DNA from: Vicinamibacterales bacterium
Lineage (GTDB): Bacteria > Acidobacteriota > Vicinamibacteria > Vicinamibacterales > UBA8438
Assembly: GCA_963665465.1 (NCBI GenBank)
Contig: OY762226.1
Location: 4,741,177 to 4,805,176, forward strand
Reading direction: 5' to 3'
Length of the DNA stretch: 64,000 bases
Below the pieces are notes generated by a model. It searched no databases and was not told where the DNA came from. It worked only from the letters and a program-made list of their open reading frames with translations. How positions within the stretch are numbered: the stretch's first letter is position 1; every line of letters starts with the position of its first letter. This document shows, piece by piece, positions 2,096 through 45,703 of the stretch. A program made the translations under genes and the position numbers.

Positions 2096-2182
2096 CGGGC
2101 CATTGTAGGTTCCGGCCAGCCGGAATCCAAGACCGAAGTTGCCTATCCCGCGATCCGCTGCAGCGCTATAGTGGAGGCGGAC

Positions 2183-2689: not shown

Positions 2690-3440
2690 ACTCGCCAGCC
2701 TGTTCGGTTCGGGACGGCTCCGTCAGGCGGGCGGCGAACCGGCGGTGTGCGTCCGCGTCGATGCCCGCCTGCAGCTCCCGGAGGGCGGCGGCGAGGTCGC
2801 CGTTCAGCAGCGCGGGGACGGTCAGGCGCAGGCCGGGGAAGACGCGGCTGTGGACGACGCCGGCGTCGTCGGCGGGCAGGGGGCGGTAGTCGCCGTCCGT
2901 CAGCTCGAACCAGTCGATGCACTGTTCCTGGGTGCGCCAGACGACGTACTCTTGCACTCCGTTGCGGCGGTAGGCGCGCAGCTTGTCGTGCAGGTCGATC
3001 GACGCGCTGCTGGCGGCGACTTCGACGACCAGCTCCGGCGCGCCTTCGAGGTAGTCGGCGGCACTCACGCGGGATCGCCCGCCCGCCTCGGGCGCGAGGC
3101 AGAGCAGCGCGTCGGGCTGCGGTTCGTTGTCGAGATCGAGGCGGAGGGTGGCGTTGTCGTAGCCGTGGACGCCGGGCGTTGACGCGGCGTACACGAGCAG
3201 CACGGTCTGAATCATCGCGTGCGGTCCCGCATGGGCCACGCTCACCGGCGACGGCATGTACACGACCCCCTCGATCAGTTGCGCCTTCTTCAGGTCGGGC
3301 CGCAGGGCGTAGCGGCGCTCGAACTCGTAGCGCGTGAGCCGGTCGCCGTTCTCCAGCGTCGGCGCGCGGAGGGCAGGGGCCCGCGGAGGCAAGAGGGTGT
3401 CGGGCGCGCCGGACCGTGACGTGACGTCGATCTCAGCCAT
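2631..3440 (-). CDS. Uma2-family (DUF820) endonuclease, copy 1
   Basis: ORF 2631-3479, trimmed to MAEIDV at 3440. Motifs: [10 protein letters not shown]...[15 protein letters not shown]...PQPDALLC...[34 protein letters not shown]. It converges on ogt with a 59-nt overlap. Confidence 0.75.
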
Positions 3441-3524
3441 GCCGGGTGATGCCTCCAGCCCGCAACTCCTAGGGTTCATGATGCCACACCCGTCGTCGCC
3501 CGCGGCTGCCGCATCCTATGCCCC

Positions 3525-5564
3525 CTATAGCGGCAGGCGGAAGGCGATGTACTCGCCCGAGTAGGTGCGTCCGCTGATGGCGAGCACGATGTACTGCCGC
3601 CCGTCCGCCAGGTAGGTCATCGGCGAGCCCGACTGCGGGGCCGGCATGAAGACCGCGCCGACCTCCCGGCCCGTCGCCTTGTCATAGGCCCGGAGCATGG
3701 CGCCCCGCCCGGCCTCCGTCCGGTGGTAGCCGCACTCGCCCATCACGACCAGCGTCCGGGTGACGAGCGGGCCGATCAGGTGGATGCACCGCTCGCCGGT
3801 GCGCGGAATCTCCAGGTCCCGCAGCGCGGGGTGATTTCGAACGCGGTCGGGCGTGTCGCCGTGCGGCGTCTGCCACAGGATGTCGCCGCGGTCGAGGTCG
3901 ATCGCGGACAGGCGCCCGTAGGGCGGCTTGACCAGCGGCAGCCCGCGCACGTTCAGGTCGCGCAGCCCGCCGTGGCCGACGCCGTACTTCGTCGTTCCCT
4001 TCACGTAGCGCATGTCCGAGACGTCCGGCCCGGGCGTCGGGATCAGCTCCCAGGAGTAGAACCCGGTCCGTGACGGGACGTACAGGATGTGGGTCTCGGG
4101 GTCGTAGCCGCCGCCGGGCCAGTTCGTGCCGCCGCTGCCGGCGCCCAGCCCGAGCGTGGCGATCGGACCGCCCTCGCGGCTGACAACCGGCGGCGTGAAG
4201 AGGGGCCCGAGCCGGTAGCGCGACACCAGCTCGACGGCCTCGGCGCGCAGCTCGGGCGTGAAGTCGATCAGGTCGTCGATGGATGCGCCCTGCCGGTCGT
4301 ACGCCGGCGGCCGGGTGGGGAACGGCTGGGTCGGGGAGTACCACTCGCCCGGCACGTCGCCCTGCGGCACCGGCCGCTCCTCGATCGGCCAGACGGGCTC
4401 GCCGGTGACCCGGTCGAAGACGTACAGGAACGCCTGCTTGCCGGGCTGCGCAACCGCCTTGATCGCCCGCCCGTCGACGGTGATGTCGGCCAGGATCGGG
4501 GGGCTGGCCATGTCGAAGCCCCAGATCGGGTGGTGCACGAGCTGGAAGTGCCACAGCCGCTCGCCGGTGAGCAGGTCGACCGCCACCAGGCTCTCGCCGA
4601 AGAGGTTGTCGCCCGGCCGGTGGCCGCCGTAGTAGTCGCCCGACGGCGTCTCGACCGGCAGATAGACGATGCCGAGGTCCGCATCGGCCGAGATCTGTGT
4701 CCAGACGCCGTTGTTGCCGTTGGTCCCCCACGAGTCGTTCAGCCAGGTGTCGGCGCCGAACTCGCCGGGGCGCGGGACGGTGTTGAAGACCCACAGGCGC
4801 CGGCCGGTGCGGATGTCGAACGCCTGCACCAGGCCCTTGGTGTTGTTGTGCGTCCGCGGCGCCGGGGCGTCGGCGAACGTGCCGCCCACGACGACGACGT
4901 CGCGCGCCACGGTGGGCGTGGCGTGCAGGCCTATCTCCCCGCTGACGAGGTCGATGGGGCGGCCGTCGCCCACGACGGCCGCCGCCTTGAGGTCGACGAT
5001 CCCGCCGTCGCCGAAGCCGGGGTCCCGCAGGCCGGTGGCGGCGTCGAGCGCCACGAGGCGGAACCCGAGCGTGACGTAGAGGATGCGGGCCTCCGTGCCG
5101 TTGGTCCAGTACGCCAGCCCGCGCCCCGACAGCAGGCGGGGCGCCTGCGCCGCCCGCTCGCCCTCGTGCTCGCTGTGCATCCACAGCAGCTCGCCGCTGG
5201 CGGCGTCCAGCGCCACGACCGCGCGCCGGGTGCCCGCGGTCGCGTAGAGCACCCCGCCGGCCATGATCGGCGTTCCCTCGAGCTTGAACTCCGGGGCCGG
5301 GCCGAGATTGTCGGTCTTGAAGCGCCAGGCGATCTCGAGCTCGCCGAAGTTCGACGCGTCGATCTGGTCCAGCGGCGAGTAGCGCGTGTGCCCGGCGTCG
5401 CCGCCGTAGCTGGGCCATTCGCCGGCCGTGGTGGTGAGCGGCCGCCACGCCTGGCCGGCCGCGTTCGCCGCCAGCAGACCGAAGCCGAGGGCGAGCACGA
5501 TCGCGCGCGGGGTCACGGGGCGCTCCCCGCAGGTCGGTAGCCAGTCTTGCATGGCCCGTATCAT
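3525..5564 (-). CDS. PQQ-dependent (quinoprotein) dehydrogenase, exported
   Basis: ORF 3525-5822, trimmed to MIRAMQDW at 5564. Signal-like AIVLALGFGLLAANAAG is followed by EWPSYGGDAGHTRYSPLDQIDASNFGELEIAWRF and repeated beta-propeller W/G motifs. Confidence 0.8.
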   Translation of the reverse strand: MIRAMQDWLPTCGERPVTPRAIVLALGFGLLAANAAGQAWRPLTTTAGEWPSYGGDAGHTRYSPLDQIDASNFGELEIAWRFKTDNLGPAPEFKLEGTPIMAGGVLYATAGTRRAVVALDAASGELLWMHSEHEGERAAQAPRLLSGRGLAYWTNGTEARILYVTLGFRLVALDAATGLRDPGFGDGGIVDLKAAAVVGDGRPIDLVSGEIGLHATPTVARDVVVVGGTFADAPAPRTHNNTKGLVQAFDIRTGRRLWVFNTVPRPGEFGADTWLNDSWGTNGNNGVWTQISADADLGIVYLPVETPSGDYYGGHRPGDNLFGESLVAVDLLTGERLWHFQLVHHPIWGFDMASPPILADITVDGRAIKAVAQPGKQAFLYVFDRVTGEPVWPIEERPVPQGDVPGEWYSPTQPFPTRPPAYDRQGASIDDLIDFTPELRAEAVELVSRYRLGPLFTPPVVSREGGPIATLGLGAGSGGTNWPGGGYDPETHILYVPSRTGFYSWELIPTPGPDVSDMRYVKGTTKYGVGHGGLRDLNVRGLPLVKPPYGRLSAIDLDRGDILWQTPHGDTPDRVRNHPALRDLEIPRTGERCIHLIGPLVTRTLVVMGECGYHRTEAGRGAMLRAYDKATGREVGAVFMPAPQSGSPMTYLADGRQYIVLAISGRTYSGEYIAFRLPL

Positions 5565-5634
5565 AGCGCCGCGCCCGCCGCGTCCGCCGCCGGGCTCGAG
5601 GGCGACGCCGGGGCTGTATACTGCCGGCAGACCG

Positions 5635-7377
5635 GTGCGAACCCTCCCCGCGGGCGTGCTGCTCGTCGCCGGATGGCTGGTGTTCGGCGTTGCGTCCGCC
5701 GCTGCCGGCGGCGGTGCGCCGCAGCCCCCGGCAGGGCTGGTCACGCCCCCCGCACAGTTCGTCCCCGACGTCACCGAGTCCGAGGCCGCTCTGGAAGCGG
5801 TGCAACGGAGCCTCGACGACACCCTGGTCGCCGGCCTGCGGACGTTCGACTGGGCGACGGCGGCCGGCGGGCTGTCCGACGGGTTCCGCGGCCGCTTTCC
5901 GGCGCCGGACGCCGGGCGCGTCGTCGCGGACGGCCGCCTCGCCGTTCGCCGCTACGCGCCGGCTGCCTCGCAGCCGCTGGACCGCGAGGCGTTCCTGGCG
6001 GTGCTGCGCCGCCACACCGCCGGCTGGACCGCCGTCGAGCGCGCCTCGTGGCACGCCTTCGAGTTCCTGCTGGAGCCGGCGCGCGACCGGGCGTTCGTCA
6101 AGGCGCACCTGCAGCTCGGCGGACCGGATCCGGCCGGCGCGCGGTCGGTGCTCGACGCCACGGTGCACGCCGGCGTGAGCGAGGTGGCCCCCGGCCGCTG
6201 GCGTCTCGAGCGGCTCGACGTCGTCGAGGCGACGGTGGTCCGCAGCCCGCATCCGCCGTTCCGGGAGATCACCGATGCCACCGGGTTCCATTTCAACCGC
6301 TCGGAGGCCAACCGCGAGCTGCGGCAGGCGATCGTGGACACGCGCTCGAGCCTCGTCGATTCCGGGCTGGCCGTGGTCGACTGGAACGGCGACGGGTTCT
6401 GGGACCTGCTGGCGACCGAGTCGATGAACCAGGGGGTGCTGTTCCTCAACGACGGCCGGGGCGGCTTCGTGCGCGCGGCGCTGCCCTACGACGACCCGCG
6501 GCTGATTCCCTCGCAGGCCCTCTTCGTCGACCTCGACGGCGACGGTCTGGAGGAACTGGTCGGCAACCGGGTGCTCTACAGCGCGGGGCGCGGCTCGATC
6601 GGCCTGCACACGCGCCGCGACGGCCGCTGGCAGTTTCTCCCCGACGCGCTCGAGTTCGACAATCCGTCGGGCGCGCAGCGCGCGGATGCCCAGCCGCTGA
6701 CCGCCGGCGACGTGAACGGCGACGGGCTGATCGACATCGTGGTGGCCGGCTACGAGACCGACCGGTCGCGCGATCCGGAACGCTTCAACCGGGTGGACGC
6801 GCGGGACGGCGCGGACACCCTGCTGTTCATCAACCGCGGCAATCTGCGGTTCACGGAGGAATCGGACGCGCGCGGCATATCCGGCACGCGCTACACCTAC
6901 GCCGCGCACCTCTTCGACTTCGACGGCGACGGCGACCTCGACCTCTTCGAGGGCAACGACTACGGCGCCAACGAGCTGTGGGACAACCAGGGCGGCGCGT
7001 TCCGCGCGCTGACGGATCATCCGCTCGCCGGCGACGCCGCCAACACGATGGGCATTGCGGTCGCCGACTGGGACAACAGCGGCCGCTGGAGCCTGCACCT
7101 CTCGAACATGTACTCGCACGCCGGGCAGCGCGTAGTTCGTCTGGCGCAGGGTCTCGCCGGCGCCATGCGGGAGCGCCTGGGACGACTCGCCGCCGGCAAC
7201 CAGCTCTTCGTCCAGGGGCCGGACGGCTGGGACGACCGGGCCGCGGCGCTGGGCGTGAGCGACGCGGGCTGGGCCTGGGCGTCGCTGTTCTACGACCTCG
7301 ACAACGACGGCGACCAGGAGCTGTTCGTCACCAACGGGAACACGAGTCACCGCGACCCCGCGGCGCCCGACTACTGA
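5635..7377 (+). CDS. FG-GAP/VCBS-repeat protein; N-terminal part of a longer frame that is interrupted by TGA 7375-7377
   Basis: ORF 5428-7377. Repeats include DWNGDGFWDLL, DLDGDGLEELV, GDVNGDGLIDIVV, FDFDGDGDLDLF and YDLDNDGDQELFV. The start is uncertain: GTG 5635 precedes the hydrophobic segment VRTLPAGVLLVAGWLVFGVASAAA, while ATG 5551 would overlap the divergent PQQ gene. Confidence 0.75.
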   Translation: MRTLPAGVLLVAGWLVFGVASAAAGGGAPQPPAGLVTPPAQFVPDVTESEAALEAVQRSLDDTLVAGLRTFDWATAAGGLSDGFRGRFPAPDAGRVVADGRLAVRRYAPAASQPLDREAFLAVLRRHTAGWTAVERASWHAFEFLLEPARDRAFVKAHLQLGGPDPAGARSVLDATVHAGVSEVAPGRWRLERLDVVEATVVRSPHPPFREITDATGFHFNRSEANRELRQAIVDTRSSLVDSGLAVVDWNGDGFWDLLATESMNQGVLFLNDGRGGFVRAALPYDDPRLIPSQALFVDLDGDGLEELVGNRVLYSAGRGSIGLHTRRDGRWQFLPDALEFDNPSGAQRADAQPLTAGDVNGDGLIDIVVAGYETDRSRDPERFNRVDARDGADTLLFINRGNLRFTEESDARGISGTRYTYAAHLFDFDGDGDLDLFEGNDYGANELWDNQGGAFRALTDHPLAGDAANTMGIAVADWDNSGRWSLHLSNMYSHAGQRVVRLAQGLAGAMRERLGRLAAGNQLFVQGPDGWDDRAAALGVSDAGWAWASLFYDLDNDGDQELFVTNGNTSHRDPAAPDY

Positions 7378-9003
7378 CCGTTCTTCTGGCGACAGGTTGT
7401 CGCCGACGCCGAAGCGATCGAACGGGCATCGCCGTTCGCGCCGGTGGCGGTCGGGGAGCGGCGTGCGTTCCGCGGCTCGTTCAGCGGCTACGAGCGCGAC
7501 CGGCTCTTCTACAACGCGGGCGGGGCGCTGGTCGGGAGCGCGTACGTCTTCGGGCTCGACGGCGACCACGACGGCCGCGCCGCCGCGCCGGTGGACGTCG
7601 ACGGCGACGGCGACCTCGATCTCGCGCTGCTGACCCTGCGCGGCCTGCGGCTGTTCGAGAACACGTCGGACGAGCACGCGCGGCCGGAGACCCGCCGCTA
7701 CGCGCGCGTGCGGCTGGCGGCCACGCGCTCGGCAGCTCCCGCCCTGGGCGCCGTGGTGACGCTGGAGGCGGGCGGCGCCACCCGCCGCGACTACGTGCGG
7801 ATCACCGAAGGTTTCCAGACGCAGGTGCCGCTCGATCTGCACTTCGGCCTGGGCGCCGCCGGGCGTGTCGAGCGCCTCACGGTCGCGTGGCCGTCGGGCG
7901 CCCGCGAGACGTGGAGCGACCTGCCCGCGGACCGGCTGCTGCGCGTGGTGGAGGGCCGCCCGGAGGTGGGGGTCGACGTGCTGCCGCGTTGGCCGGAGGG
8001 CACGCGGCCCAGGCCGGTCGGCCCGCCGTCGACCGCGGTGGACCTGCCGCGGCTGGGGGGCGGCGCCGGGCCGCTGACGTCCGGCGGACGGCCCGCGGTG
8101 GTCAACTTCTGGGCCCCCTGGTGCGCGCCGTGCAACGTGGAGCTGCCGCAGCTCGTGGCGCTGGCGGGACGCTACGGGGGCCGCGTCGACTTCGCCGGCG
8201 TCAGCGTGGAAGTGGACGATCTGGACTCGGTCCGCGGCATGGTCCGCGACCTGGGCGTGCCGTATCCGCAGTTCCTCGCCGACGCACCGGTGATGGAGCG
8301 CTTTTTCGGCGGCGCCGACGCGGCGGCGCTCCCCTCGACGTACGTGTTCGACGCCCGGGGCCGCCTGCGGCGCCAATTCCGGGGTCCGATCACCGAGGCC
8401 GACCTCGACGCGCTGCTGCAGTCGCTGCGCGACGAGGGCCTGTTCGAGGCGGACCTCGAGCTGGCGGCCCGGTCGGCGGCCCGGGCGGGCGACCTCGAGC
8501 AGGCCATCGCGCACTACCGCCGGCTCGCCGCGCGCCGGCCGGGGAGCGCGCAGCCGCTCTACCGCATCGGCGTGGCGGCGCTGGCGCTGGGCGACGTGGA
8601 GCAGGCCCGCGACGCGCTGGAGCAGGCGGTCAGCCGCGCGCCGGCCCACCCGCTGGCGCAGTTCCACCTCGGTCTGGCGCGGCTGCGCTCGGGGCAGCCG
8701 GGGCAGGGGTTCGCCAGCCTGCAGGCGTCGCTGGCGCTGGCCGGACGGGACCCGGCCGCGTTGACGAGCCTGGGCAGCGCGGCGGCGGCGGCGGGGCAGC
8801 TGTGGCTCGCGGTCGACGCGCTGTCGCTGGCGGTGGAGGCGGATCCCGCCTCGTCGTCCGCCTGGCTGGGCAAGGCGCGCGCGCACCGTGCCCGGCGGGA
8901 GCTCGACCGCGCGGCGGCCGCCTACCAGCAGGCGCTGGCGCTCGAGCCGGAGAACGCGGCGGCCCGGCGCGAGCTGAGCGGCCTGACTTCCGACCAGCGG
9001 TAG
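7378..9003 (+). CDS. Same-frame continuation: ASPIC/UnbV-like region, TlpA/ResA-like thioredoxin domain and TPR repeats
   Basis: The ORF track starts at GTG 7444, but the frame is open from 7378 and is the same frame as 5428-7377. The region right after the TGA reads PFFWRQVVADAE. Further motifs: VDVDGDGDLDLAL, VTLEAGGATRRDYV...WPSG, the redox motif VVNFWAPWCAPCNVELPQL, then TPR-like helices. Confidence 0.75.
   Translation, partial: PFFWRQVVADAEAIERASPFAPVAVGERRAFRGSFSGYERDRLFYNAGGALVGSAYVFGLDGDHDGRAAAPVDVDGDGDLDLALLTLRGLRLFENTSDEHARPETRRYARVRLAATRSAAPALGAVVTLEAGGATRRDYVRITEGFQTQVPLDLHFGLGAAGRVERLTVAWPSGARETWSDLPADRLLRVVEGRPEVGVDVLPRWPEGTRPRPVGPPSTAVDLPRLGGGAGPLTSGGRPAVVNFWAPWCAPCNVELPQLVALAGRYGGRVDFAGVSVEVDDLDSVRGMVRDLGVPYPQFLADAPVMERFFGGADAAALPSTYVFDARGRLRRQFRGPITEADLDALLQSLRDEGLFEADLELAARSAARAGDLEQAIAHYRRLAARRPGSAQPLYRIGVAALALGDVEQARDALEQAVSRAPAHPLAQFHLGLARLRSGQPGQGFASLQASLALAGRDPAALTSLGSAAAAAGQLWLAVDALSLAVEADPASSSAWLGKARAHRARRELDRAAAAYQQALALEPENAAARRELSGLTSDQR
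7388..7404 (+). promoter_or_regulatory. 17-nt hairpin 10 nt 3' of the in-frame TGA (SECIS-like candidate)
   Basis: GGCGACA-GGT-TGTCGCC forms a perfect 7-bp stem with a 3-nt loop. The context is TGA CCGTTCTTCT followed by the hairpin. Confidence 0.45.
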
Positions 9004-21382: not shown

Positions 21383-21415
21383 CATGCTGTTACCATGCGA
21401 GCCTGAGATCCTGGT

Positions 21416-21982
21416 ATGGAACCTGCTGCTTCCTCCCGTGAGCCGACCCCGCCGGTAACGGGCGACGAGTTGCCGCGCACACCGGGGCTCGACCCCTGCG
21501 AGCTCGTTGCCGGCCGCATCGTGCGCATGACGCCGACCAACCCCATCCACGGACGGATCGAGGTGAATGTGGCCGCCGCGCTCAAGCAGTTCGTGCGTAC
21601 GCGGAATCCGGGCGTCGTCATGGCGGGCGAGGTTGGTATTTTCACCGGCCGGAATCCGGATACCGTGCGGGCGCCCGATGTCCTCTACCTGTCCCACGAA
21701 CGGGACGCACGTCGGAGCCGGCCGCAGGGCTTCCTCGACGTCGCACCCGAGCTGGGCGTCGAGATCCTGTCCCCGACGGATCGGCCGGACCCGGTGCGGC
21801 GCAAGCTCGGCGAGTACTTCGCGGCCGGCGTCCGCCTGGCGTGGGTGATCGACCCCGCCGCACGCACGGTGCAGGTCCATCGCGACCGCGGCGCGGTACG
21901 GACGCTGGCGCCCGGTGCGGTGGTCACCGGCGAGGACGTGCTGCCGGGGTTCGAGCTGACGGTCGACGACGTCTTCGAGTAG
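21416..21982 (+). CDS. Uma2-family (DUF820) endonuclease, copy 2
   Basis: Motifs: ELVAGRIVRMTPTNPIHG, RAPDVLYLS, APELGVEILSPTDRPDPVRRKLGEYFAAGVRLAWVIDP. Confidence 0.8.
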   Translation: MEPAASSREPTPPVTGDELPRTPGLDPCELVAGRIVRMTPTNPIHGRIEVNVAAALKQFVRTRNPGVVMAGEVGIFTGRNPDTVRAPDVLYLSHERDARRSRPQGFLDVAPELGVEILSPTDRPDPVRRKLGEYFAAGVRLAWVIDPAARTVQVHRDRGAVRTLAPGAVVTGEDVLPGFELTVDDVFE

Positions 21983-23519: not shown

Positions 23520-24869
23520 TCACACCGAGAGCATGTCCACCCGGCCGGTGCTGTCGCCCATGGCGTCGATCGGCACGCCCAGCTTGTCCAGCATCGCCAG
23601 GAACAGGTTGGTGTTCGGCGTGTCCTTCGCGGCCTGCACGTGGCGCCCGCCCGTGAGCCGCCCACCGGCGCCGCCCACCAGCATCGTCGGCAGGTCGTGG
23701 TGGTTGTGGCGGTTGCCGTCGCTGAGGCCGCTGCCGTAGAGCACCAGCGCCGAATCGAGCAGGGTGCCCTCGCCGTCCGGCGTCGACGCCAGGCGGTCGA
23801 CGTAGTAGGCGAACATCTCGGTGAGATGGCGGTCGACCTTCTTCAGCTTCTCGATGAGCGCCGCGTCGCCGCCGTGGTGCGACAGTGCGTGGTGGGCGTC
23901 GGGCACCCCGATCTCCGGATAGGCGCGATTGCTCGTCTCGTGCCCGAGCATGAACGTGATGACGCGGGTCAGGTCGGCCTGCCAGGCGAGCACCTGCAGG
24001 TCGAACATGAGCTTCGCGTGCGCCTCGAAGCTGTCGGGCACGCCGGCGGGCTGGTCCATCAGCGGCAGCTCGCGCGCCGTCTGCCGCTCCGCCATCTGGA
24101 TGCGACGCTCCACGTCGCGCACCGCGTCCAGGTACTCGTTCAGCTTCACCCGGTCGCGGGGACCGAGCTCGGCCTTCAGCCGCGCCACCTTGGCGGTCAC
24201 CATGTCGAGCAGGGAGCGGTCGTGCCGGCGGGCGGCCAGCCACGCCGCGGGGTCGGTCGTCCCGCCGCTGCCGAACAGCCGCTCGAAGACGGCCCGCGGA
24301 TCGCTCGCCATCGGCAGCGGGGTCGTCGGGCTGCTCCAGCACAGGGTGTTGGCGTAGACGCAGCTGTAGCCGGGGTCGCACGACCCGGCACGCTCCGCCG
24401 ACTCGAGCGAGAGCTCGAGCGAGGCAAGCTGCGTCTCCTGCCCCAGCACGCGGGCCGCGATCTGGTCCATCGAGATGCCGGCGCGGATGTCGTGTCCTTC
24501 CGTCTTCTTCGGATGCACGCCGGTGAGGAAGGCCCCGGCCGCGCGCGCGTGGTCGCCGGCGCCTTCGCCGGGACGGGCGATGCCCTCCTCGGCGCACAGC
24601 CCGCTGACCATGAGCAGCCGGTCTCGGTGCGCGGCCAGCGGCCGCAGCGTCTCGGTGACGGCGAGGGCGCCGCTGCCGCCGGGCGGCGTCCAGTTCGGCA
24701 TGAACATGCCGTTGGGGACGTACACGACCCCGAGGCGCCGGACGGGCTCGGCGGCGCCGGCGCGCAGGCCGAACGCGGGCACCATGCTGTCGAGCATCGG
24801 TAACGCCAGGGTCACGCCGAGGCCGCGGAGGAACGTGCGACGCGGGAGGTGCTTCCTGGTGACCATCAT
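23520..24869 (-). CDS. DUF1552-family protein with Tat-type signal (triad 1)
   Basis: Real part of ORF 23520-27344. MMVTRKHLPRRTFLRGLGVTLALPMLDSM...GSCDPGYSCVYANTLCW...LTRVITFMLGHE. Its start overlaps the upstream stop (ATGA). Confidence 0.85.
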   Translation of the reverse strand: MMVTRKHLPRRTFLRGLGVTLALPMLDSMVPAFGLRAGAAEPVRRLGVVYVPNGMFMPNWTPPGGSGALAVTETLRPLAAHRDRLLMVSGLCAEEGIARPGEGAGDHARAAGAFLTGVHPKKTEGHDIRAGISMDQIAARVLGQETQLASLELSLESAERAGSCDPGYSCVYANTLCWSSPTTPLPMASDPRAVFERLFGSGGTTDPAAWLAARRHDRSLLDMVTAKVARLKAELGPRDRVKLNEYLDAVRDVERRIQMAERQTARELPLMDQPAGVPDSFEAHAKLMFDLQVLAWQADLTRVITFMLGHETSNRAYPEIGVPDAHHALSHHGGDAALIEKLKKVDRHLTEMFAYYVDRLASTPDGEGTLLDSALVLYGSGLSDGNRHNHHDLPTMLVGGAGGRLTGGRHVQAAKDTPNTNLFLAMLDKLGVPIDAMGDSTGRVDMLSV

Positions 24870-27289
24870 GGCTCTCGCGATCTCCTCATCTGAAACGGCG
24901 TGCTCTCGACGACGCCCAGGACCATCGACGTCCAGCGGTAGTCGTTGTCGGCCGCGCCGCGGGCGACGCCGCGGACGGCCGGCGCGTCGTAGTACTCGAT
25001 CCCGCGCCCCAGCGCGTAGGTCAGGAGCTTCTCGGCCACGGTCTCGACGAAGCGCTCTTCCGCACCGAGCAGAACGTCGCGCAGCCCGTGCGGGCCGGCG
25101 AACCGGGAGCCGTCGGGCAACCTGCTCGCCACGTCGATCGGCGCCCCGTCCTCGGTCGTGCGCCAGGCCCCGATGCCGTCGTAGTTCTCCAGGGCAAAGC
25201 CCAGCGGGTCCATCAGGACGTGGCAGCTGGCGCACACGGGGCTGATGCGGTGGATCTCCATCCGCTCGCGCATCGAGAGCCGGCGGTCCTGCCGGGGATG
25301 ATCGGCGTCGGGCAGTCCGGGCACCTCCGCGGGAGGCGGCGGGGGCGCCGAGCCGAGGAGACTCTCCAGCACCCAGAGGCCGCGCTTGGTCGGCGAGGTC
25401 CGGTTCGGGTACGAGGTGGCGGTCAGCACGCTCCCCTGGCCCAGCAGCCCGCCCCGGCGCCGTCCGGCGACGTTGACCCGCCGAAAATGGTTGCCGTAGA
25501 CGTTCGCGACGCCGTAATGCCGCGCGAGCCGCTCGTTGAGAAACGTGTAGTCGGCCCGCAGCAGGTCGAGGACGCTGCGGTCCTCGCGCACCTGGCTCGC
25601 GACGAAGAGCGCCGTCTCCTGCTGCAGCGCCTCGCGCAGGTTCTCGTCGAAGTCCGGAAACGCGTCGGGGTCCGGGGCCGCCGTCCGCAGGTTGCGCAGC
25701 AGCAGCCACTGGCCGAAGAAGTTGTCGATGAAGGCGTCCGACCGCCGGTCGGCCAGCAGGCGGCCGATCTGGGCCGGCAGCACACCGGGCTCCCGCAGGC
25801 GGCCGGCGGCCGCCACGTCGAGCAGCTCGTCGTCCGGCAGGCTGCTCCACAGGAAGAACGACAGGCGCGAGGCCAGCTCCAGATCGCTGACCGGATAGGC
25901 CGTGCCGGGCGGCATCCCGTCCGGATCGCGCTCGATGCGGAACAGGAACTCGGGGTCGATCAGAAGGCCCCTCACCACGAGCTGTACGCCGCGCTCGAAG
26001 CCCCCCTCGCGCCGGCCTTCCTCGTACAGCGCCAGCAGCGGCGCGGTGTCCGCCTCGCCTACCGGGCGGCGGAACGCGCGGCGGGCCAGGGTCGACACGA
26101 CCTCCGCTGCGCAGCCGGCCTCGTCGGCCGCCGTCGCGGGGTAGCAGGAAAAGACCCGCCGGCGGCTGGGGGTGTCCGCCGGGGTGGACCCGCCGTAGGG
26201 ACCGCGGATCTCGATGCTGTCGAGGGCCATCGCCGCGTTCCGGTCGCGGGAATAGGCCAGGCTCGACACCGCCGGCCGCGGCTCGAGGACACCCTCGGCG
26301 ACCGCCACCCGGTCGATGAACGCCGCGCTGACCAGACGCGTGCCCGCGCTCACGTCGAGACGCACCTCGAGCCCCTCGTCGGCCGTCTGCTCGTAGAGCG
26401 TCGGCCGGGACACCGCGTTCCACGGCGCCCGCACCCCCTCGCCGCCGACGGTGAAGCGGCCGATACGCGCGCGGTCGAGCCGCAGCTCGATGTCGTTCGG
26501 TGCCTGGAGTCCGCGGATGTGGTTGCCGTACGCGCGCTGCAGCCTGAGGCGGATGACGTACTCGCCGTCGAGCGGAAAGTGATGGCGGACCGCGAGGCCG
26601 CCGCGCGACCCGAAGGGCAGGTCCTCGCTCATGCGGCCTTCCTGCCAGAGCGTGTACGGCACCGTGTAGGTCTCGATCGCCGATCGGATCGCGGGGTCGC
26701 CGAGGGCCAGCCGGCTGATCTTCCCGGCCGCGGCCATGTAGCGATCGAGCAGCACCGGGGAGATCGCCAGCACGTCGGCGATGTTGTCGAACCCGTACCC
26801 GGACTCGTCCGGCGGCAGCAGCGCCCGCTCGTCGACGTCCAGCGCCAGCAGGTCGCGGATCGCGTTGCGGTACTCGGCGCGGTTCAGGCGATGGATCGGC
26901 GGCCGGCCGGGATTCGGATGGTCGGCGGCGGCGCGGTCGAGAGCCGCCTCCAGCGCGGCGGCCGCCGCGTCGTAGGCGCCGGCGTCGGGCCGCGGCCGTC
27001 CCGGCGGGGGCATCGCCCGCGCCCGCAGCTTGCGCACGACCTTCTCCCAGACCTCGACTTCTCCCGGAACCCGGCCCGCGTGCTCGGCGTCGATGGACTG
27101 CAGGGTCAGGCCGGCCTCGCGGCTGCGGTCGTTGTGGCACGCCACGCAGTACCGATCGAGCAGTGCCCGGGGAGCGGAAGCCGCGTGCTGCGCAGGCGGG
27201 ACCTGCGCACGCAACTGGCCGGCGGCGCCGGCCGCAAGGGCGAGACCGAGAGCGAACCCGAACCACCCCAGCGAGCCTCTGGCCGTCAT
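24866..27289 (-). CDS. DUF1592/DUF1587/DUF1595/DUF1588/DUF1585-family protein with c-type haem motif (triad 1)
   Basis: Real part of ORF 24866-29893, starting MTARGSLGWFGFALGLALAAG at 27289. Motifs: RYCVACHNDR, LLIDPEFLFRIE, FFLWSSLPDDELL, ISPVCASCHVLMDPLGFALENYD. Confidence 0.85.
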   Translation of the reverse strand: MTARGSLGWFGFALGLALAAGAAGQLRAQVPPAQHAASAPRALLDRYCVACHNDRSREAGLTLQSIDAEHAGRVPGEVEVWEKVVRKLRARAMPPPGRPRPDAGAYDAAAAALEAALDRAAADHPNPGRPPIHRLNRAEYRNAIRDLLALDVDERALLPPDESGYGFDNIADVLAISPVLLDRYMAAAGKISRLALGDPAIRSAIETYTVPYTLWQEGRMSEDLPFGSRGGLAVRHHFPLDGEYVIRLRLQRAYGNHIRGLQAPNDIELRLDRARIGRFTVGGEGVRAPWNAVSRPTLYEQTADEGLEVRLDVSAGTRLVSAAFIDRVAVAEGVLEPRPAVSSLAYSRDRNAAMALDSIEIRGPYGGSTPADTPSRRRVFSCYPATAADEAGCAAEVVSTLARRAFRRPVGEADTAPLLALYEEGRREGGFERGVQLVVRGLLIDPEFLFRIERDPDGMPPGTAYPVSDLELASRLSFFLWSSLPDDELLDVAAAGRLREPGVLPAQIGRLLADRRSDAFIDNFFGQWLLLRNLRTAAPDPDAFPDFDENLREALQQETALFVASQVREDRSVLDLLRADYTFLNERLARHYGVANVYGNHFRRVNVAGRRRGGLLGQGSVLTATSYPNRTSPTKRGLWVLESLLGSAPPPPPAEVPGLPDADHPRQDRRLSMRERMEIHRISPVCASCHVLMDPLGFALENYDGIGAWRTTEDGAPIDVASRLPDGSRFAGPHGLRDVLLGAEERFVETVAEKLLTYALGRGIEYYDAPAVRGVARGAADNDYRWTSMVLGVVESTPFQMRRSREP

Positions 27290-27443
27290 GAGCACCCAGC
27301 CTTCCTGCACGCGCCGGCGCGCGGCGCCGGCGCAATCGGGGCACGCTCGATGGACGCCGCCCGCCAATCGTCGCCTTGCGGCTCCGCTCGGCGCCCAGCC
27401 TGTCCTGCGGCAGTCCGCGCCGTTCATGGTAACCCAGATGCCA

Positions 27444-27484
27444 AAGCGGACGCCGGGGGTTCGGGGCGCAGCCCCGTCTGATGG
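27444..27484 (+). repeat. Dispersed GC-rich repeat, right-module copy
   Basis: aagcggacgccgggggttcggggcgcagccccgtctgatgg, located 58 nt upstream of the 27542 gene. Confidence 0.7.
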
Positions 27485-27541
27485 AAGCGCCGGGATGTAG
27501 AATAGGTCAGCCGCCGAGCAGGCACGCATGAGGGGGAAACG

Positions 27542-29293
27542 ATGAGGGCACGTCACATCTCGATAGGCTGCGGCGCGTGGATTCCGGTGCTGGTTGTCGC
27601 CCTGGCAGCGATTGCCGGGCTGCCGGCGGCCGTGTCCGCCCAGGGCACCGGGACGATCTCGGGCATCGTGACCGTCGACGACGGCGAGGTCCAGGCGTTC
27701 CGGGTCAAGGCGCGCGACACCGTGGGGCGGATCGCCTACACGGTCTACACGGTCGAGGGGCGCTACCGGATCTACAACCTGCCGTCGGGGACGTACGAGG
27801 TGCAGGTGATCGAGCCGGGGTTCGAGCCGCTGGTCAGGACGGTGCAGGTGGCGGCTTTCGAGACCGCGACGGCCAACCTGGCGTTGAGGTCGACCGGGCC
27901 GCTGGCCGCGCAGGGCGCCGGCGGCGCGGAGGCGCGGGCGAACTACGGCGGGCGGCAGGTCAACGCCGACGGCGCGGAGCTGGTGGACTTCGACGAGCTG
28001 TATCCCCCGCACCCGGCGCGGGACGTCATGCTGCGGTCGTGCTTCGGGTGCCACGGGCCCGCGGCCTTTCACAACCGGGGCGTGAAGAACGAGGCGGGGT
28101 GGCGGCGGGCCGTCAACCGCATGTTCGACGTGGACGGTCGGGTGGCCAACATGGCGCCGGGCGTGCCCCAGATCACCCATGAGACGGTGTCGGAAGAGGA
28201 GATGGAGCTGATCATCAGCTACCTGACCGACAACTTCGGGCCCGACTCGGTGCAGCGCGACCTGCTGCTCGACCCGCTGGTGCGCGACGAGACGCAGCTG
28301 GCCGAGGCCGTCTACGTGCAGTACGAGCTGAACCGCGGGCCCCGCAAGGAGGTGCGCGGCCGCCCGCCGACCTGGTCGATCCACAGCGTGTTCGCGAGCC
28401 AGGTCCAGCCGGGCGTGATCTGGGTGTCGGGCAACGGGTCGAACTCGATCATCCGGGTCGACACGCGGGTGCGCGACTTCGAGGCGCGGACGACGGAGTA
28501 CTGGATCGACAACCCGGCGAACATCAACGTGACGCCGCACGGCATCATCGAGCTCGACGGCACCGTCTACTGGGTGGAGCTGACGGGCGACCACCTGGGC
28601 GAGCTGGATCCGGCGACCGGCGAGATCACACGGCACCGGATGCCGGTGAGCGGCGGCGGCCCGCACAGCTGCTGGGCCGACTCGCGGGGCTACATCTGGT
28701 ACACCTACTTCGCCTCGGCGGGGAAGATCGGCCGGTTCGACACGCGGACCAAGGAGTTCGAGGAGTGGGAGCCGCTGTCGGGCTTCAGCGGCTACGGGAT
28801 CGTGGTCGACCGGCAGGACCGGGTGTGGGCCGTGGGGCTGCACACGCCCGCGACGCTGATGTTCAACCAGGAGACCCAGGAGTGGACGGAGTACCCGATG
28901 GCGAACCCGGCGCGGCGCCCCGCCATCGACAGCAACGGCAAGATCTGGGCAGCCCACTACTACGGGAACGCCATCACGAAGATCGACCCGGTGACCGACG
29001 AGGTGACGGAGTACACGCTGCCGCTCAAGGACGGCAACCCGTACGACGTCTGGCCGGACGCGGACGACAACCTGTGGGTCGAGAACATGATCTACAACTC
29101 GCTGGTCAAGTTCGATCAGGCGACCAGCGAGTTCACCTACTTCCCGTTTCCCGAGCTGCAGGCGCACACGCCGAAGCTCGACACCGATCGGTCGGGCGTG
29201 CTGTGGTTCACGCTCGGCAACCCGTCCGGTCCGGGCATCGCCGCGCTCAAGCCGCACGGCAACGTCCGGGGCGGATTTCCGGTGGCGCAGTAG
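27542..29293 (+). CDS. Exported carboxypeptidase-regulatory-like domain + CxxCH haem motif + beta-propeller (virginiamycin-B-lyase-like repeats)
   Basis: GTISGIVTVDDGEVQAFRVKARD...GRYRIYNLPSGTYEVQV, then SCFGCHGP, then repeated W/Y-rich blades (GYIWYTY, DRVWAVG, GKIWAAHY, DNLWVEN, GVLWFT). Confidence 0.7.
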   Translation: MRARHISIGCGAWIPVLVVALAAIAGLPAAVSAQGTGTISGIVTVDDGEVQAFRVKARDTVGRIAYTVYTVEGRYRIYNLPSGTYEVQVIEPGFEPLVRTVQVAAFETATANLALRSTGPLAAQGAGGAEARANYGGRQVNADGAELVDFDELYPPHPARDVMLRSCFGCHGPAAFHNRGVKNEAGWRRAVNRMFDVDGRVANMAPGVPQITHETVSEEEMELIISYLTDNFGPDSVQRDLLLDPLVRDETQLAEAVYVQYELNRGPRKEVRGRPPTWSIHSVFASQVQPGVIWVSGNGSNSIIRVDTRVRDFEARTTEYWIDNPANINVTPHGIIELDGTVYWVELTGDHLGELDPATGEITRHRMPVSGGGPHSCWADSRGYIWYTYFASAGKIGRFDTRTKEFEEWEPLSGFSGYGIVVDRQDRVWAVGLHTPATLMFNQETQEWTEYPMANPARRPAIDSNGKIWAAHYYGNAITKIDPVTDEVTEYTLPLKDGNPYDVWPDADDNLWVENMIYNSLVKFDQATSEFTYFPFPELQAHTPKLDTDRSGVLWFTLGNPSGPGIAALKPHGNVRGGFPVAQ

Positions 29294-29339
29294 CCCTGCC
29301 GCGGGCGCCCGACGCGGCGCCTGACGGGTGCGGAAGAGC

Positions 29340-31838
29340 ATGAGCAGGGTCGTCATCGGCGGCTGCGGGCTGGTGCTGGCCGGCGTCTGGGCGCTCGGTC
29401 TGCCGGCCCCCGTTTCGGCGGCGCCGCGCGCCCCCGTCGGGCAGGGGCGCGCGGCGGCCGAGTCGTCCGCGGCCGCCCCGCAGGCCCTGCTGAACCGGTA
29501 CTGCCTCACCTGCCACAACGAGCGGCTGAACACCGGCGGGCTGGCGCTCGACCGCCTCGACCCGGCCGACGTGGGCGCGGCGCCCGCACGCTGGGAAGCG
29601 GTCGTCGAGAAGCTGCGCGCGGGCATGATGCCGCCCCCGGGGCGGCCCCGGCCCGCGCCGGCCGAGGCCGAGCGCCTCCGCCGCTGGCTGGAGGCGGCGC
29701 TCGACCGCGCGGCCGCCGCCAGCCCCGAGCCGGGCCGCGTGCCGACCCACCGCCTGAATCGCGCCGAGTACGCCAACGCCGTCCGCGATCTGCTCGCCCT
29801 CGAGGTGGACGGCGGCGCGCTCCTGCCGGCGGACGTCGCCGGCCACGGGTTCGACAACCTGGCCGGAACGCTCACGCTGTCGCCGTCGCTCATGGAGCGC
29901 TACCTGTCGGCGGCCCGCCGCATCAGCCGCCTGGCCGTCGGCGATCCCGGCATCGGGCCCGGCTTCACGTCGCGTGCCTACGCGGTGCCGATCGACATGA
30001 CCCAGAACGAGCGCATGAGCGAGGATCTGCCGTTCGGGTCGCGGGCCGGCATCGCCGTCCGGCATCGTTTTCCGCTCGACGGCGACTACGACCTCAGGAT
30101 CCGGCTCAAGCGCAGCGTCTACGAGTACATCGTCAACCTCGAGGAGGCGCACGATCTCGAGGTGCGTCTCGACGGCACGCGGGTGGCCCTCTACACGATT
30201 GGCGGCGAGGCGCCCGGCAGGCCCGCCCCGCTGACCTTCTCGGGCACGTTCATGGCGGCGGGCGGCGCCGGCTATCCCACGCAGGACTGGGACGACTACT
30301 ACACCGGGGCCGACGCGGGTCTCGAGCTGCGCGTCCCGGTGAGGGCCGGCACGCGGCTGGTCGGCGTTGCCTTCATCGGCAAGTCGTGGGAGGAGGAGGG
30401 CGTCCTCCAGCCCTCGCTGCGCGAGTACGGCGCGACGGTGACCGAGCTCACCGACACGTCCCCGCGGCCCGAGGGACCGGGGATCGAGAGCGTGTCGATC
30501 GACGGGCCGTACAACGTGACCGGTGCCGGCGACACCGCCAGCCGCGAGCGCATCTTCACCTGCCGCCCGCCGGCCGGCGACGCGGCGGCGGAGGCCGGTT
30601 GCGCGCGGACGATCTTCTCGACGCTGACGCGGCGCGCCTACCGGCGGCCGGTGACGGCGGACGACCTCGCGCCGCTGATGCCGTTCTACGACGCCGCGCA
30701 CGCGGCGGGCGGCTTCGAGGCCGGCATCCGGGCCGGGCTCGAACGCATCCTGATCGACCCCGAGTTCCTGTTCCGCATCGAGCGCGATCCCGAGGACGCG
30801 GCGTCCGGCGGCATCTATCGGCTCGGCGGCCTCGAGCTGGCCTCCCGCCTGTCGTTCTTCCTGTGGAGCAGCATTCCGGACGACGAGCTGCTGGCGCTGG
30901 CCGCGCGCGGCGCGCTCGACGATCCCGGCGTCCTCGAGCGCCAGGTGCGCCGGATGCTGGCCGACCGCCGCGCGCGGGCGCTCGTCGACAACTTCGCCGG
31001 TCAGTGGCTCGCCATCCGCAACGTGCAGGGGCTGGTGCCCGACCCCAATCTCTTCCCGCACTTCGACGAGAACCTCCGCGAGGCCTTCCGGCAGGAGACC
31101 GAGCTGTTCGTCGAGAGCCAGCTGCGCGAGGACCGCAGCGTCGTCGAGCTGTTGACGGCCGACTACACGTTCCTGAACGAGCGGCTGGCGCGGCACTACG
31201 GCATCCCCGGCGTGCACGGCAACCGCTACCGCCGGGTGCGCCTGACCGACGAGCGGCGCGGCGGGCTGCTGGGGCACGGCAGCGTCCTGTCGGTCACTTC
31301 CTACGGCAACCGCACGTCGCCGGTCCTGCGCGCCAAGTGGGTGCTCGAGAACCTGCTGGGTACGCCGCCGCCGCCGCCGCCCGCCGACGTGCCGGGTCTG
31401 CCCGACAGCGGCGAGCACGGCGAGCCGCAGACGGTCAGGGAGCGTCTGGCCCAGCACCGGCGCAACCCGGTCTGCGCGAGCTGCCATGCGCCGATGGACC
31501 CCCTCGGATTCGCGCTCGAGAACTTCGACGCGGTGGGGGGGTGGCGCACCCACGACGCGGGGCTGCCGGTCGACGCGTCCGGGGTCCTGACCGACGGCAC
31601 GCGCTTCGACGGGCCAGCGGAGCTGCGCGCGGCGTTGGCCGCGCGCCGGGAGCAGTTCGTCGAGACGCTCACCGAAAAGCTGCTGACGTACGCGCTGGGC
31701 CGGGGGCTCGAGGCGTACGACCGTCCGGTGGTGCGGGCGATCGCCCGCGAGTCCGCCGCCGACGACTACCGCTGGTCGGCCATCGTTCTGGGCATCGTCC
31801 GCAGCACGCCGTTCCAGATGCGGAGGTCCGAGTCATGA
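29340..31838 (+). CDS. DUF1592-family protein with c-type haem motif (triad 2)
   Basis: ORF 29328-31838; ATG at 29340. Motifs: RYCLTCHNER, ILIDPEFLFRIE, FFLWSSIPDDELL, RNPVCASCHAPMDPLGFALENFD. Confidence 0.85.
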   Translation: MSRVVIGGCGLVLAGVWALGLPAPVSAAPRAPVGQGRAAAESSAAAPQALLNRYCLTCHNERLNTGGLALDRLDPADVGAAPARWEAVVEKLRAGMMPPPGRPRPAPAEAERLRRWLEAALDRAAAASPEPGRVPTHRLNRAEYANAVRDLLALEVDGGALLPADVAGHGFDNLAGTLTLSPSLMERYLSAARRISRLAVGDPGIGPGFTSRAYAVPIDMTQNERMSEDLPFGSRAGIAVRHRFPLDGDYDLRIRLKRSVYEYIVNLEEAHDLEVRLDGTRVALYTIGGEAPGRPAPLTFSGTFMAAGGAGYPTQDWDDYYTGADAGLELRVPVRAGTRLVGVAFIGKSWEEEGVLQPSLREYGATVTELTDTSPRPEGPGIESVSIDGPYNVTGAGDTASRERIFTCRPPAGDAAAEAGCARTIFSTLTRRAYRRPVTADDLAPLMPFYDAAHAAGGFEAGIRAGLERILIDPEFLFRIERDPEDAASGGIYRLGGLELASRLSFFLWSSIPDDELLALAARGALDDPGVLERQVRRMLADRRARALVDNFAGQWLAIRNVQGLVPDPNLFPHFDENLREAFRQETELFVESQLREDRSVVELLTADYTFLNERLARHYGIPGVHGNRYRRVRLTDERRGGLLGHGSVLSVTSYGNRTSPVLRAKWVLENLLGTPPPPPPADVPGLPDSGEHGEPQTVRERLAQHRRNPVCASCHAPMDPLGFALENFDAVGGWRTHDAGLPVDASGVLTDGTRFDGPAELRAALAARREQFVETLTEKLLTYALGRGLEAYDRPVVRAIARESAADDYRWSAIVLGIVRSTPFQMRRSES

Positions 31839-44635: not shown

Positions 44636-45703
44636 ATGGGCGGCATGACATCCAGGTTCCTGCCGCTCGGTATCGCGCTCGGCTGCAGCGTGCTGCTGGC
44701 CGCGCAGTCTCCGCCGCCCCTGCCGGAGGTCGATCGGTTCGGGCCCCAGGCGGGCGAGGTCGTCCCCGATTTCGCGCTGGTCGATCAGACCGGACGCACG
44801 CGGGACCTCGCGTCCGTCCTGGGTCCGAACGGGGCGCTGCTCGTCTTCGCCCGCTCGGCCGTCTGGTGACCGTACTGCAAGACGCAGCTCGTGGAGCTGC
44901 AAGAACGCTACGCCGATCTCACCGCGCAGGGCATTGGTGTGGCCGCCATCTTCTACGACCCGCCGGAGGCGATCCGCGAGTTCGCCGAGGCGCGCGGGAT
45001 CGAGTTCCCGGTGCTGTCGGATCCCGGCTCGGCGGTGATTCGGCGCTACGGCATCCTGAACCGGGAAGTCGAGCCGGACGCGAAGGTGGGCGACTTCCGC
45101 CTGTTCGGCATCCCCTATCCCGGGACGTTCGTGCTCGACGGCGCGGGGCGGGTCGTGGAGCGCTTCTTCGAGCAGCGCTACCAGGAGCGGATCACGGCGG
45201 CGAGCATCGCGCTCCGGCTCGGCGACCCCCTGGAGGGGACGTCCGCCGCCGGGAACGGGATGGACAGCCGGCTGATCGCCGCGCGCGCCTACGCCAGCGA
45301 CGCGGCGGTGGCGCCCGGCAACCGGTTTGCGCTCATGGTCGACATCGAGCCCAAGCCGGGCATGCACGTGTACGCGCCCGGCGATCACATCTACCGCGTC
45401 ATCCGGCTGCGCGTGGACGAGCCCGACTTCCTGCGGGTGCACCCGCTCTCCTACCCGCCGTCGGAGCTGTATCACTACGAGCCGCTGGACGAGACCGTGC
45501 CGGTCTACCAGGAGCCGTTCCGCCTCGTTCAGGAGGTCACCGTGCCGATGAGCGAGGAGACGGCGGCGCTGTCCGCTGCGGGTGGCAAGCTGGTGGTGGA
45601 GGGCGCGCTCGAGTACCAGGTCTGCGACGACGAAGTGTGCTACATCCCCGCCTCGGCGCCGCTCCGCTGGGAGCTGGCGTGGCGGCCGCTGATCCGCGAC
45701 TAG
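44636..45703 (+). CDS. Exported AhpC/TSA-type redoxin with in-frame TGA at the first active-site Cys position (candidate Sec, U-x-x-C), fused to a DsbD-N-like domain
   Basis: ORFs 44636-44869 and 44891-45703 are in the same frame. Read-through gives LLVFARSAVW-TGA-PYCKTQLVELQERYADLTAQGIGVAAI. The C-terminus reads PGMHVYAPGD...ALEYQVCDDEVCYIP. Confidence 0.7.
44884..44900 (+). promoter_or_regulatory. 17-nt hairpin 14 nt 3' of the in-frame TGA (SECIS-like candidate)
   Basis: GCAGCTC-GTG-GAGCTGC forms a perfect 7-bp stem with a 3-nt loop. The context is TGA CCGTACTGCAAGAC followed by the hairpin. Confidence 0.55.

Follow-up and report, generated by a model that had tools for sequence, protein, structure and literature searches.

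In bacteria, selenocysteine (Sec) is delivered by SelB as Sec-tRNA(Sec) to the ribosomal A site at a UGA codon, in competition with release factor 2, after which the hairpin following the codon, called the SECIS element (for selenocysteine insertion sequence), is unwound and translated. This mechanism is established for Escherichia coli and Moorella. In E. coli the hairpin 3' of the UGA is bound through a G-U in its loop by the C-terminal domain of SelB (PMC8659212; PMC13188914). The minimal SECIS of fdhF is a 17-nucleotide (nt) upper stem-loop (nt 15-31) located 11 nt from the UGA, with a bulged U17 and the loop bases G23 and U24 (PMC8659212), while the general bacterial SECIS (bSECIS) consensus of bSECISearch (Zhang and Gladyshev), as given in PMC13188914, allows loops of 3-9 nt, stems of 4-16 base pairs (bp) and UGA-to-loop distances of 16-37 nt, and puts a G at loop position 1 or 2, with G or U as the usual next base. 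Here we describe two genes, A and B, from a 64,000-nt stretch of a Vicinamibacterales bacterium genome (GCA_963665465.1, contig OY762226.1, positions 4,741,177 to 4,805,176; hereafter the window), each of which contains an in-frame TGA followed by a 17-nt hairpin. An earlier note made from the sequence of this window had proposed that the TGAs are Sec codons served by SECIS hairpins and, judging by the conservation of the TGA, the covariation in the stems and the fit to the consensus, this is very probably correct: both genes would be genuine selenoprotein genes, with the hairpins as their bacterial SECIS elements.

Both TGAs lie in frame within single genes and have homologous protein on either side, as determined by translation, Pfam and homology. 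At site A the TGA is followed by CCGTACTGCAAGAC (14-nt spacer) and then by the hairpin GCAGCTC-GTG-GAGCTGC, which falls inside the codons for T-Q-L-V-E-L-Q and whose loop begins 21 nt past the UGA (14-nt spacer plus 7-nt arm). At site B the TGA is followed by CCGTTCTTCT (10-nt spacer) and by the hairpin GGCGACA-GGT-TGTCGCC, which falls inside the codons for W-R-Q-V-V-A, has a loop beginning 17 nt past the UGA (10 + 7) and may be extended by an optional U7387-G7405 wobble as an eighth pair. The coordinates thus read exactly as the earlier note had described them, with two in-frame TGAs, each followed 10-14 nt on by a perfect hairpin of 7 bp with a 3-nt loop, both hairpins being 17 nt long and both loops containing G-U (GUG in A, GGU in B). 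These were the only in-frame TGAs that it had noticed, and a six-frame scan of the window, which returned about 115 same-frame open reading frame (ORF) pairs, the 17 with the highest G+C content at third codon positions on both sides being translated, gave no further credible candidate; apart from sites A and B, the translated pairs proved to be artefacts of the G+C-rich sequence, lying off-frame or antisense, or else two neighbouring genes that happen to share a frame.

According to RNAfold, both bare hairpins are minimum-free-energy local structures (-10.1 and -11.4 kcal/mol). The 64- and 101-nt contexts of both sites are no more stable than their shuffles (z = +0.4 to -1.0), and the signal is therefore a small local hairpin with no larger structure. 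A larger SECIS with a lower helix was considered as well and rejected, the extended pairings proposed by RNAfold not being conserved in orthologues.

The product of gene A has a signal-like N-terminus, then an AhpC/TSA-redoxin domain that contains W-U-P-Y-C, and lastly a DsbD_N-like domain (Pfam matches AhpC-TSA 1.5e-27, Redoxin 6.6e-17 and DsbD_N 4.4e-08). The last of these carries a cysteine pair, C-D-D-E-V-C, which is likely to be an internal redox partner. Among the 120 best homologues of gene A, 113 are truncated gene calls covering at most 76% of the query, and the seven of these that were aligned all start at M-E-L-Q, directly after the TGA. Seven full-length homologues (P0078, P0089, P0092, P0111, P0113, P0117 and P0118) instead have W-C-P-Y-C, with the first Cys opposite the TGA. 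In the family A set, which consists of 80 loci from a metagenome scan and the window itself (81 in total), the Sec column is occupied by TGA in 72 loci and by TGC or TGT in nine.

The hairpin of family A is found in near-identical form in 71 other metagenome loci, at protein identities of 44-65%, and in the TGA forms GCAGCTC-GTN-GAGCTGC is almost frozen, including its synonymous sites. A perfect stem of seven pairs is present in 63 of the 72 Sec forms (the others having six of the seven pairs) versus one of the nine Cys forms (Fisher p = 6e-6), most of which form 4-5 pairs. The peptide at this position is relaxed in the Cys forms (QVIELQ, QLLDLQ, QLAELQ and similar). In the 63 distinct TGA-form sequences, 98% of the alignment cells are paired, and compensatory double changes have taken place in three of the seven pairs (GC to AU six times, GC to UA, and CG to UA), a degree of covariation that was not matched once in 500 column shuffles. 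All of these 63 sequences have the loop G-U, which forms the first two bases of a Val codon, GUN, which is itself invariant in the Sec forms of the family and is found in only four of 16 Cys forms. In two metagenome contigs (L109 and L160) a tRNA-SeC gene lies within a few hundred bases of a TGA-form family A gene, which suggests that selC is occasionally physically linked to this family; the ORFs adjoining the tRNA-SeC in L109 are without a Pfam match.

The larger product of gene B starts with a hydrophobic anchor or signal, which is followed by an FG-GAP/VCBS beta-propeller region, an UnbV_ASPIC domain, a domain of thioredoxin/redoxin type and TPR repeats (Pfam matches FG-GAP_3 2.3e-28, UnbV_ASPIC 1.4e-17, AhpC-TSA/Redoxin/Thioredoxin, and TPR). 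Its homologues are again split in the databases: 117 of the 120 best stop at ...P-D-[Y/F/L], precisely at the TGA, and split gene calls are also present in the loci L001 and L162-L169. In the family B set (80 loci from a scan of one genome per species), the Sec column is TGA, never TAA or TAG, in 58 copies of the gene, which come from about 56 genome loci. After the TGA comes [S/P/T]-F-[F/Y]-W-R-Q-V-V and, in loci that contain the whole downstream ORF, an open frame of 360-850 more codons; in three shorter paralogues (one in L014 and two in L069) the frame ends after 192-230 codons. The closest relative of the window, locus L001, shows 99% protein identity, and the relatives that bear a name belong to Vicinamibacterales. 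TGA forms are carried by Vicinamibacterales, Bryobacterales, Holophagales, many Planctomycetota, Verrucomicrobiota (Akkermansiaceae, Roseibacillus) and Latescibacterota, and family B genes abound among the Planctomycetota, Verrucomicrobiota and Acidobacteriota of soils and marine habitats.

Some members of family B show additional features. Tandem paralogues occur in L049 (at 224 and 4012) and L069 (at 1482 and 4096), each copy with its own in-frame TGA and hairpin. In a few members (L031:4033, L036:4045 and L069) a Cys adjoins the Sec, as G-D-C-U-S-F-F-W or U-S-C-L-W, and could possibly serve as a local selenenylsulfide partner.

In every lineage the 5' arm of the family B hairpin, GGCGNCA (codons W-R-Q), keeps a constant spacing from the TGA, as do the first loop bases, G-G-U or G-U (from caG GUn). 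In acidobacterial members (the window, L001-L006 and L162-L169) the hairpin is conserved and its 3' arm gives a 3-nt loop, while in most other lineages the 3' pairing is shifted by 2 nt, resulting in 6 bp and a 5-nt loop, with the shifted stem sometimes reaching 7-8 bp through V to L or Q to H changes. Among 53 sequences from other phyla, the pair 18-28 is GU in 21, AU in 17, GC in six, CG in five and UG in one, another pair changes from AU to GC five times, and the loop G-U is invariant. Covariation links the Arg third base to the base that opens the next codon (S/P/A), so that in this family amino acid changes track the RNA pairing. Genomes with 72% G+C nevertheless retain two rare codons, CGA and GTT, in the hairpin. 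At least six contiguous pairs can be formed by 58 of 65 distinct Sec sequences versus three of six non-Sec sequences (p = 0.03), the Asp-form gene being one in which the hairpin is not formed. The earlier note had asked for the stem to be checked in orthologues, and compensatory changes were indeed found in both families, with a strong link to the TGA in A and a weaker one in B. Taken together, the comparative data show that selection maintains the hairpins as RNA structures linked to the TGA, and in both families the requirement on the RNA apparently fixes a Val in the protein, the loop G-U being the first two bases of its codon.

To find sense-codon relatives of gene B, 1.84 billion representative proteins were searched exhaustively and without a profile, the query being a full-length Asp form. 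This returned 28 homologues that span the site, with Q in 11, D in five, N in four, S in four, E in three and C in one; non-Sec homologues overall have Q, D, N, S, E or A, besides the single C. That Cys form (P0388, D-L-C-S-F-F-W-R-Q-V-V) aligns with gene B over both the site and W-C-x-P-C (E = 2e-31), and because it is a single cluster representative, a Sec/Cys pair exists for family B only once. In the locus set, the fused CxxC situated about 250 residues past the Sec is present in 49 of 52 evaluable Sec forms versus one of six non-Sec forms (Fisher p = 7e-5). The Cys form retains it as well, while the four Glu forms, the Asp form and every member of the P-D-W-[Q/D/N] clade have lost it. The UGA-encoded residue and the CxxC thus behave as one functional unit, as a redox-active Sec would predict, and the Sec of gene B probably works as a redox couple with the fused thioredoxin-like CxxC. 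One of the Glu-form loci, L044 (CAYUPN010000121.1), is labelled 'uncultured Bifidobacteriaceae' and is very similar to the Vicinamibacteraceae/Luteitalea loci L046 and L047; the label is probably a binning or taxonomy error.

The balance of these observations tips slightly in favour of a broader proposal, namely that gene B represents a large, essentially undescribed family of exported FG-GAP/UnbV_ASPIC selenoproteins from Acidobacteriota, Planctomycetota, Verrucomicrobiota and Latescibacterota, with a single Sec in D-[LY]-U-[SP]-F-F-W-R-Q-V-V that lies outside any thioredoxin fold, hardly ever gives way to Cys, and comes and goes with the thioredoxin-like CxxC domain fused at the C-terminus. 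The features of both genes, with the evidence for each, are collected in the table.

Table. Features of the two putative selenoprotein genes (window positions) and of tRNA-SeC genes in related metagenome loci.
Feature	Position	Strand	Detail or evidence
Gene A, putative selenoprotein gene	44636..45703	+	355 codons, predicted Sec at residue 78; translation and Pfam
UGA A, proposed Sec codon (first residue of the U-x-x-C motif of gene A)	44867..44869	+	Cys/TGA column comparison
Putative SECIS hairpin A	44884..44900	+	5' arm 44884-44890, loop GUG 44891-44893, 3' arm 44894-44900
C-D-D-E-V-C cysteine pair, DsbD_N-like domain of gene A	45623..45640	+	C330 and C335 invariant in alignment A1
Gene B, putative selenoprotein gene	5551..9003	+	1150 codons, predicted Sec at residue 609; translation and Pfam
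UGA B, proposed Sec codon in the gene B motif P-D-Y-U-P-F-F-W-R-Q-V-V	7375..7377	+	Column conservation
Putative SECIS hairpin B	7388..7404	+	5' arm 7388-7394, loop GGU 7395-7397, 3' arm 7398-7404
Loop G-U as start of a conserved Val codon	44891-44893 and 7396-7397	+	Alignments A3 and A4
W-C-A-P-C motif, thioredoxin-like domain of gene B	8119..8133	+	248 residues after the Sec; sequence coordinates
tRNA-SeC gene (anticodon TCA) beside a TGA-form family A gene	L109:2737-2831	-	tRNA within a few hundred bases
tRNA-SeC gene (anticodon TCA) beside a TGA-form family A gene	L160:470-566	+	tRNA within a few hundred bases

SelB binding and the actual insertion of Sec at sites A and B are inferred, as are the functions of the two proteins; the mechanism is the one established for E. 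coli and Moorella. With the UGA at the A site, the ribosome would have the hairpin just outside the mRNA entry channel, starting 10 nt (B) or 14 nt (A) downstream and presenting the loop G-U 18 nt (B) or 21 nt (A) past the UGA. The C-terminal domain of SelB would bind the loop G-U and the stem, so that the complex of SelB, GTP and Sec-tRNA(Sec) would be tethered at the A site and Sec would be inserted in competition with release factor 2, after which the ribosome would melt the hairpin and decode it in the normal way, giving TQLVELQ for A and WRQVVA for B. The products would be an exported redoxin with U-x-x-C in place of the usual C-x-x-C (gene A) and an exported FG-GAP/UnbV_ASPIC protein in which the Sec and the fused thioredoxin-like CxxC form a redox couple (gene B).

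The frequency with which such hairpins arise by chance bears on both sites. The earlier note had estimated a probability of about 2e-4, which is a figure for one fixed position; measured over the allowed spacings and loops it amounts to about 0.9%. More precisely, a perfect 7-bp Watson-Crick stem with a loop of 3-5 nt that starts 8-16 nt downstream is found at 0.875% of window positions on both strands, or at 0.58% when a G is required in the first two loop bases. For two pre-chosen sites that both have the hairpin, the joint chance is about 8e-5, or roughly 1e-4, when the coding constraint is ignored. With codon frequencies taken from the window genes, the site B stem is expected from WRQVVA about 0.09% of the time, a low value because it calls for two rare codons, CGA, with a share of 6.6% among Arg codons, and GTT, with one of 6.5% among Val codons.

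Several observations weigh against the reading of the TGAs as Sec codons with SECIS hairpins. The peptide TQLVELQ, combined with the codon usage of the window, yields the site A stem about 7% of the time; this coding constraint weakens the chance argument at site A, where the comparative evidence, which exists, is therefore decisive. In family B, three of the four Glu-form relatives are still able to form the hairpin, which is thus not exclusive to TGA, and the contrast between hairpin and TGA in this family, resting on the six non-Sec sequences, is only suggestive. Cys stands at the Sec column of family B only once and the usual residues are Q, D, N, S or E, which is atypical for selenoproteins. 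None of selA, selB, selC and selD was found in the 64-kb window by ARAGORN and by Pfam searches of about 27 further ORFs, and ARAGORN found no tRNA gene in it at all. An Infernal search of Rfam gave no match over the whole window at the gathering threshold, and no SECIS family at E <= 10 around either site. Bacterial SECIS models in Rfam are gene-specific, and on that ground no match was to be expected. Sec competence of the source organism may be deduced indirectly from the canonical U-x-x-C gene, from the tRNA-SeC genes beside orthologues in other contigs, from the Sec machinery documented in Planctomycetes that carry split ASPIC/UnbV/FG-GAP candidate genes (PMC4807772) and from the selenoproteins documented in Acidobacteria (PMC1794560).

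The same hairpins could be explained without any function, as by-products of palindromic conserved peptides in G+C-rich coding DNA, with read-through relying on something else. Apart from the 7% expectation at site A and the Glu forms that keep the stem, this would agree with the fact that Q-L-x-E-L-Q is also common in Cys forms and that the 64- and 101-nt contexts are not unusually stable. It does not account for the Cys forms of family A, which lose the stem and relax the peptide while the Sec forms freeze even synonymous sites, nor for the compensatory double substitutions in both families, some of which change the amino acid (S/P/A with the third base of Arg, V to L with CAG/CAA), nor for the two rare codons required at site B (expectation ~9e-4), and we regard it as highly improbable. 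Even less credence can be given to the view that the TGAs are real stops, whether in split genes, pseudogenes, assembly errors or cases of re-initiation, or that an ordinary tRNA suppresses the UGA. It is true that all public gene callers cut both genes in two there, and the residues found in sense-codon homologues of family B could mean that this position is catalytically dispensable. The same TGA, never TAA or TAG, nevertheless recurs in about 130 independent loci of several phyla, which excludes sequencing error and decay. It is directly followed by conserved codons without a start codon (P-Y-C-K-T-Q in A, S/P-F-F-W-R-Q-V-V in B) and in family A stands for the essential first Cys of a CxxC; a tRNA-SeC gene adjoins two family A loci, and in family B loss of the Sec goes with loss of the fused CxxC, as expected if the UGA-encoded residue is the redox partner of that CxxC.

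A different question is whether the hairpins, if they are SECIS elements, belong to a new class. The earlier note had suggested a compact lineage-specific form, defined by a 7-bp stem, a 3-nt loop and the context TGACCGT, and such a form would be read by a divergent SelB. Neither hairpin has a conserved lower helix, the extra pairs given by RNAfold at site A depending on an unconserved downstream R-Y-A peptide, and neither has a bulged U comparable to U17 of E. coli fdhF; moreover, acidobacterial copies of family B have 7-8 bp and a 3-nt loop, and a stem of 6 bp with a 5-nt loop prevails among those of planctomycetes and verrucomicrobia. Against this, both elements satisfy all readable structural constraints of the general bSECIS model (PMC13188914), they accompany the same genes in distant lineages, the family A hairpin being near-identical in the other metagenome loci, and a mini-hairpin is in any case not new, since the 17-nt upper stem-loop of E. 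coli alone is the functional core (PMC8659212). TGACCGT cannot be upheld as a shared architecture either, as it is unconserved even among close relatives: CCG-T is a Pro codon followed by the start of a Tyr or Phe codon, a coincidence of codons, and the codon after the TGA varies in family A between the Pro codons CCG, CCC, CCT and CCA and in family B between AGT, AGC, ACG, ACC, CAG, TCG and CCG, even among close acidobacterial relatives. A new class is accordingly very unlikely, if slightly less so than the two explanations weighed above, and SECIS hairpins of the general bacterial type remain the reading that we prefer.

The surroundings of gene B were also inspected. A PQQ-dependent dehydrogenase gene (Pfam PQQ, E = 6e-178; window 3528-5951, minus strand) is its conserved neighbour in Vicinamibacterales-type genomes, being present also in L001, L162, L164 and L167, and this neighbourhood may hint at a functional link between the dehydrogenase and family B. 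Two putative restriction endonuclease genes of the Uma2 family are located at 2634-3515 (minus strand) and 21407-21979 (plus strand). In L001, the 99%-identical relative, extra genes including a DDE transposase lie between the Uma2 and PQQ dehydrogenase genes, and the region therefore differs between close strains. The acidobacterial window further contains three large PSD/PSCyt genes of planctomycete type at 2-2518 (minus strand), 24869-29899 (minus strand) and 29325-31835 (plus strand), with DUF1585/1587/1588/1592/1595 and a cytochrome c domain.

The practical consequences concern annotation and the search for selenoproteins. In the public protein collections that were searched, almost all models of both families are split or truncated at the TGA, and they bear names such as 'VCBS repeat-containing protein, partial'; as 113 of 120 (A) and 117 of 120 (B) of the nearest relatives are truncated there, hundreds of deposited gene models would be wrong. 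Family B has probably been overlooked because searches for Sec/Cys pairs rarely detect such genes and gene callers cut them in two, and selenoproteome surveys based on such pairs would undercount families in which Cys rarely substitutes for Sec, as this family illustrates. If the proposal made here for family B is true, it would point to a new kind of selenium-dependent active site that is recycled by a built-in reductase. The location of the Sec in an extracytoplasmic protein of beta-propeller type and its covariation with the fused domain offer a concrete way to test what the enigmatic ASPIC/UnbV (CRTAC1-like) proteins do.

When compared with the bSECIS consensus, in so far as its readable structural criteria go, the hairpins lie inside the coding region directly 3' of the UGA as expected, with 3-nt loops (GUG and GGU), stems of 7-8 bp and UGA-to-loop distances of 21 nt (A) and 17 nt (B). 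They are at the small end of the range and are without a conserved lower helix; nothing structural differs. The fdhF element, which the earlier note had described correctly (17-nt upper stem-loop, 11 nt from the UGA, loop G23/U24; PMC8659212), is of the same size and nearly the same placement: with numbering from the U of the UGA, nt 14-30 make up hairpin B and nt 18-34 hairpin A, the loop G-U of B falls at nt 22-23 and that of A at 25-26, where fdhF has it at 23-24, and the spacers measure 10 and 14 nt against 11. Unlike fdhF, the stems of A and B are perfect, without a bulged U, the loops have 3 nt, and there is neither sequence similarity nor an extended 40-nt lower stem. The hairpin signal is itself ordinary and canonical, and the earlier note was right in its SECIS reading and not in the novelty that it attached to the signal.

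As to the proteins, gene A is a known kind of selenoprotein. In its domains, its U-x-x-C and its Cys homologues it resembles the peroxiredoxin (Prx)-like thiol:disulfide oxidoreductase/Redoxin selenoproteins (PF00578/PF08534, UxxC) of Table 1 in PMC13188914, and differs from them in the added DsbD_N-like domain with its conserved CxxxxC and in the signal-like N-terminus. It scores below all related NCBIfam cut-offs (SelL_rel_redox 45.1 vs 120 bits, ResA 45.8 vs 170, WAxxUGC_long 21.2 vs 300). For gene B, there is no NCBIfam match, no solved structure related by sequence was found, and no FG-GAP, VCBS or UnbV_ASPIC entry appears in the 2026 catalogue of 119 prokaryotic selenoprotein families (PMC13188914). 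The only mention of family B found in the literature is S9 Table of Kim et al. 2016 (PMC4807772), where ASPIC/UnbV + FG-GAP selenoprotein candidates are listed for the Planctomycetes P1 and P2, with a SECIS predicted by bSECISearch in three of the four and a Gly in the nearest sense-codon relative. These candidates share with family B the domain content, the splitting of the gene into two calls at an in-frame UGA and a homologous residue other than Cys, and they are given in the supplementary table only, without analysis. What the present comparison adds for family B is its breadth over at least four phyla (three orders of Acidobacteriota being counted as one), the covariation of its SECIS, one Cys form, and the joint loss of the Sec and the fused CxxC.

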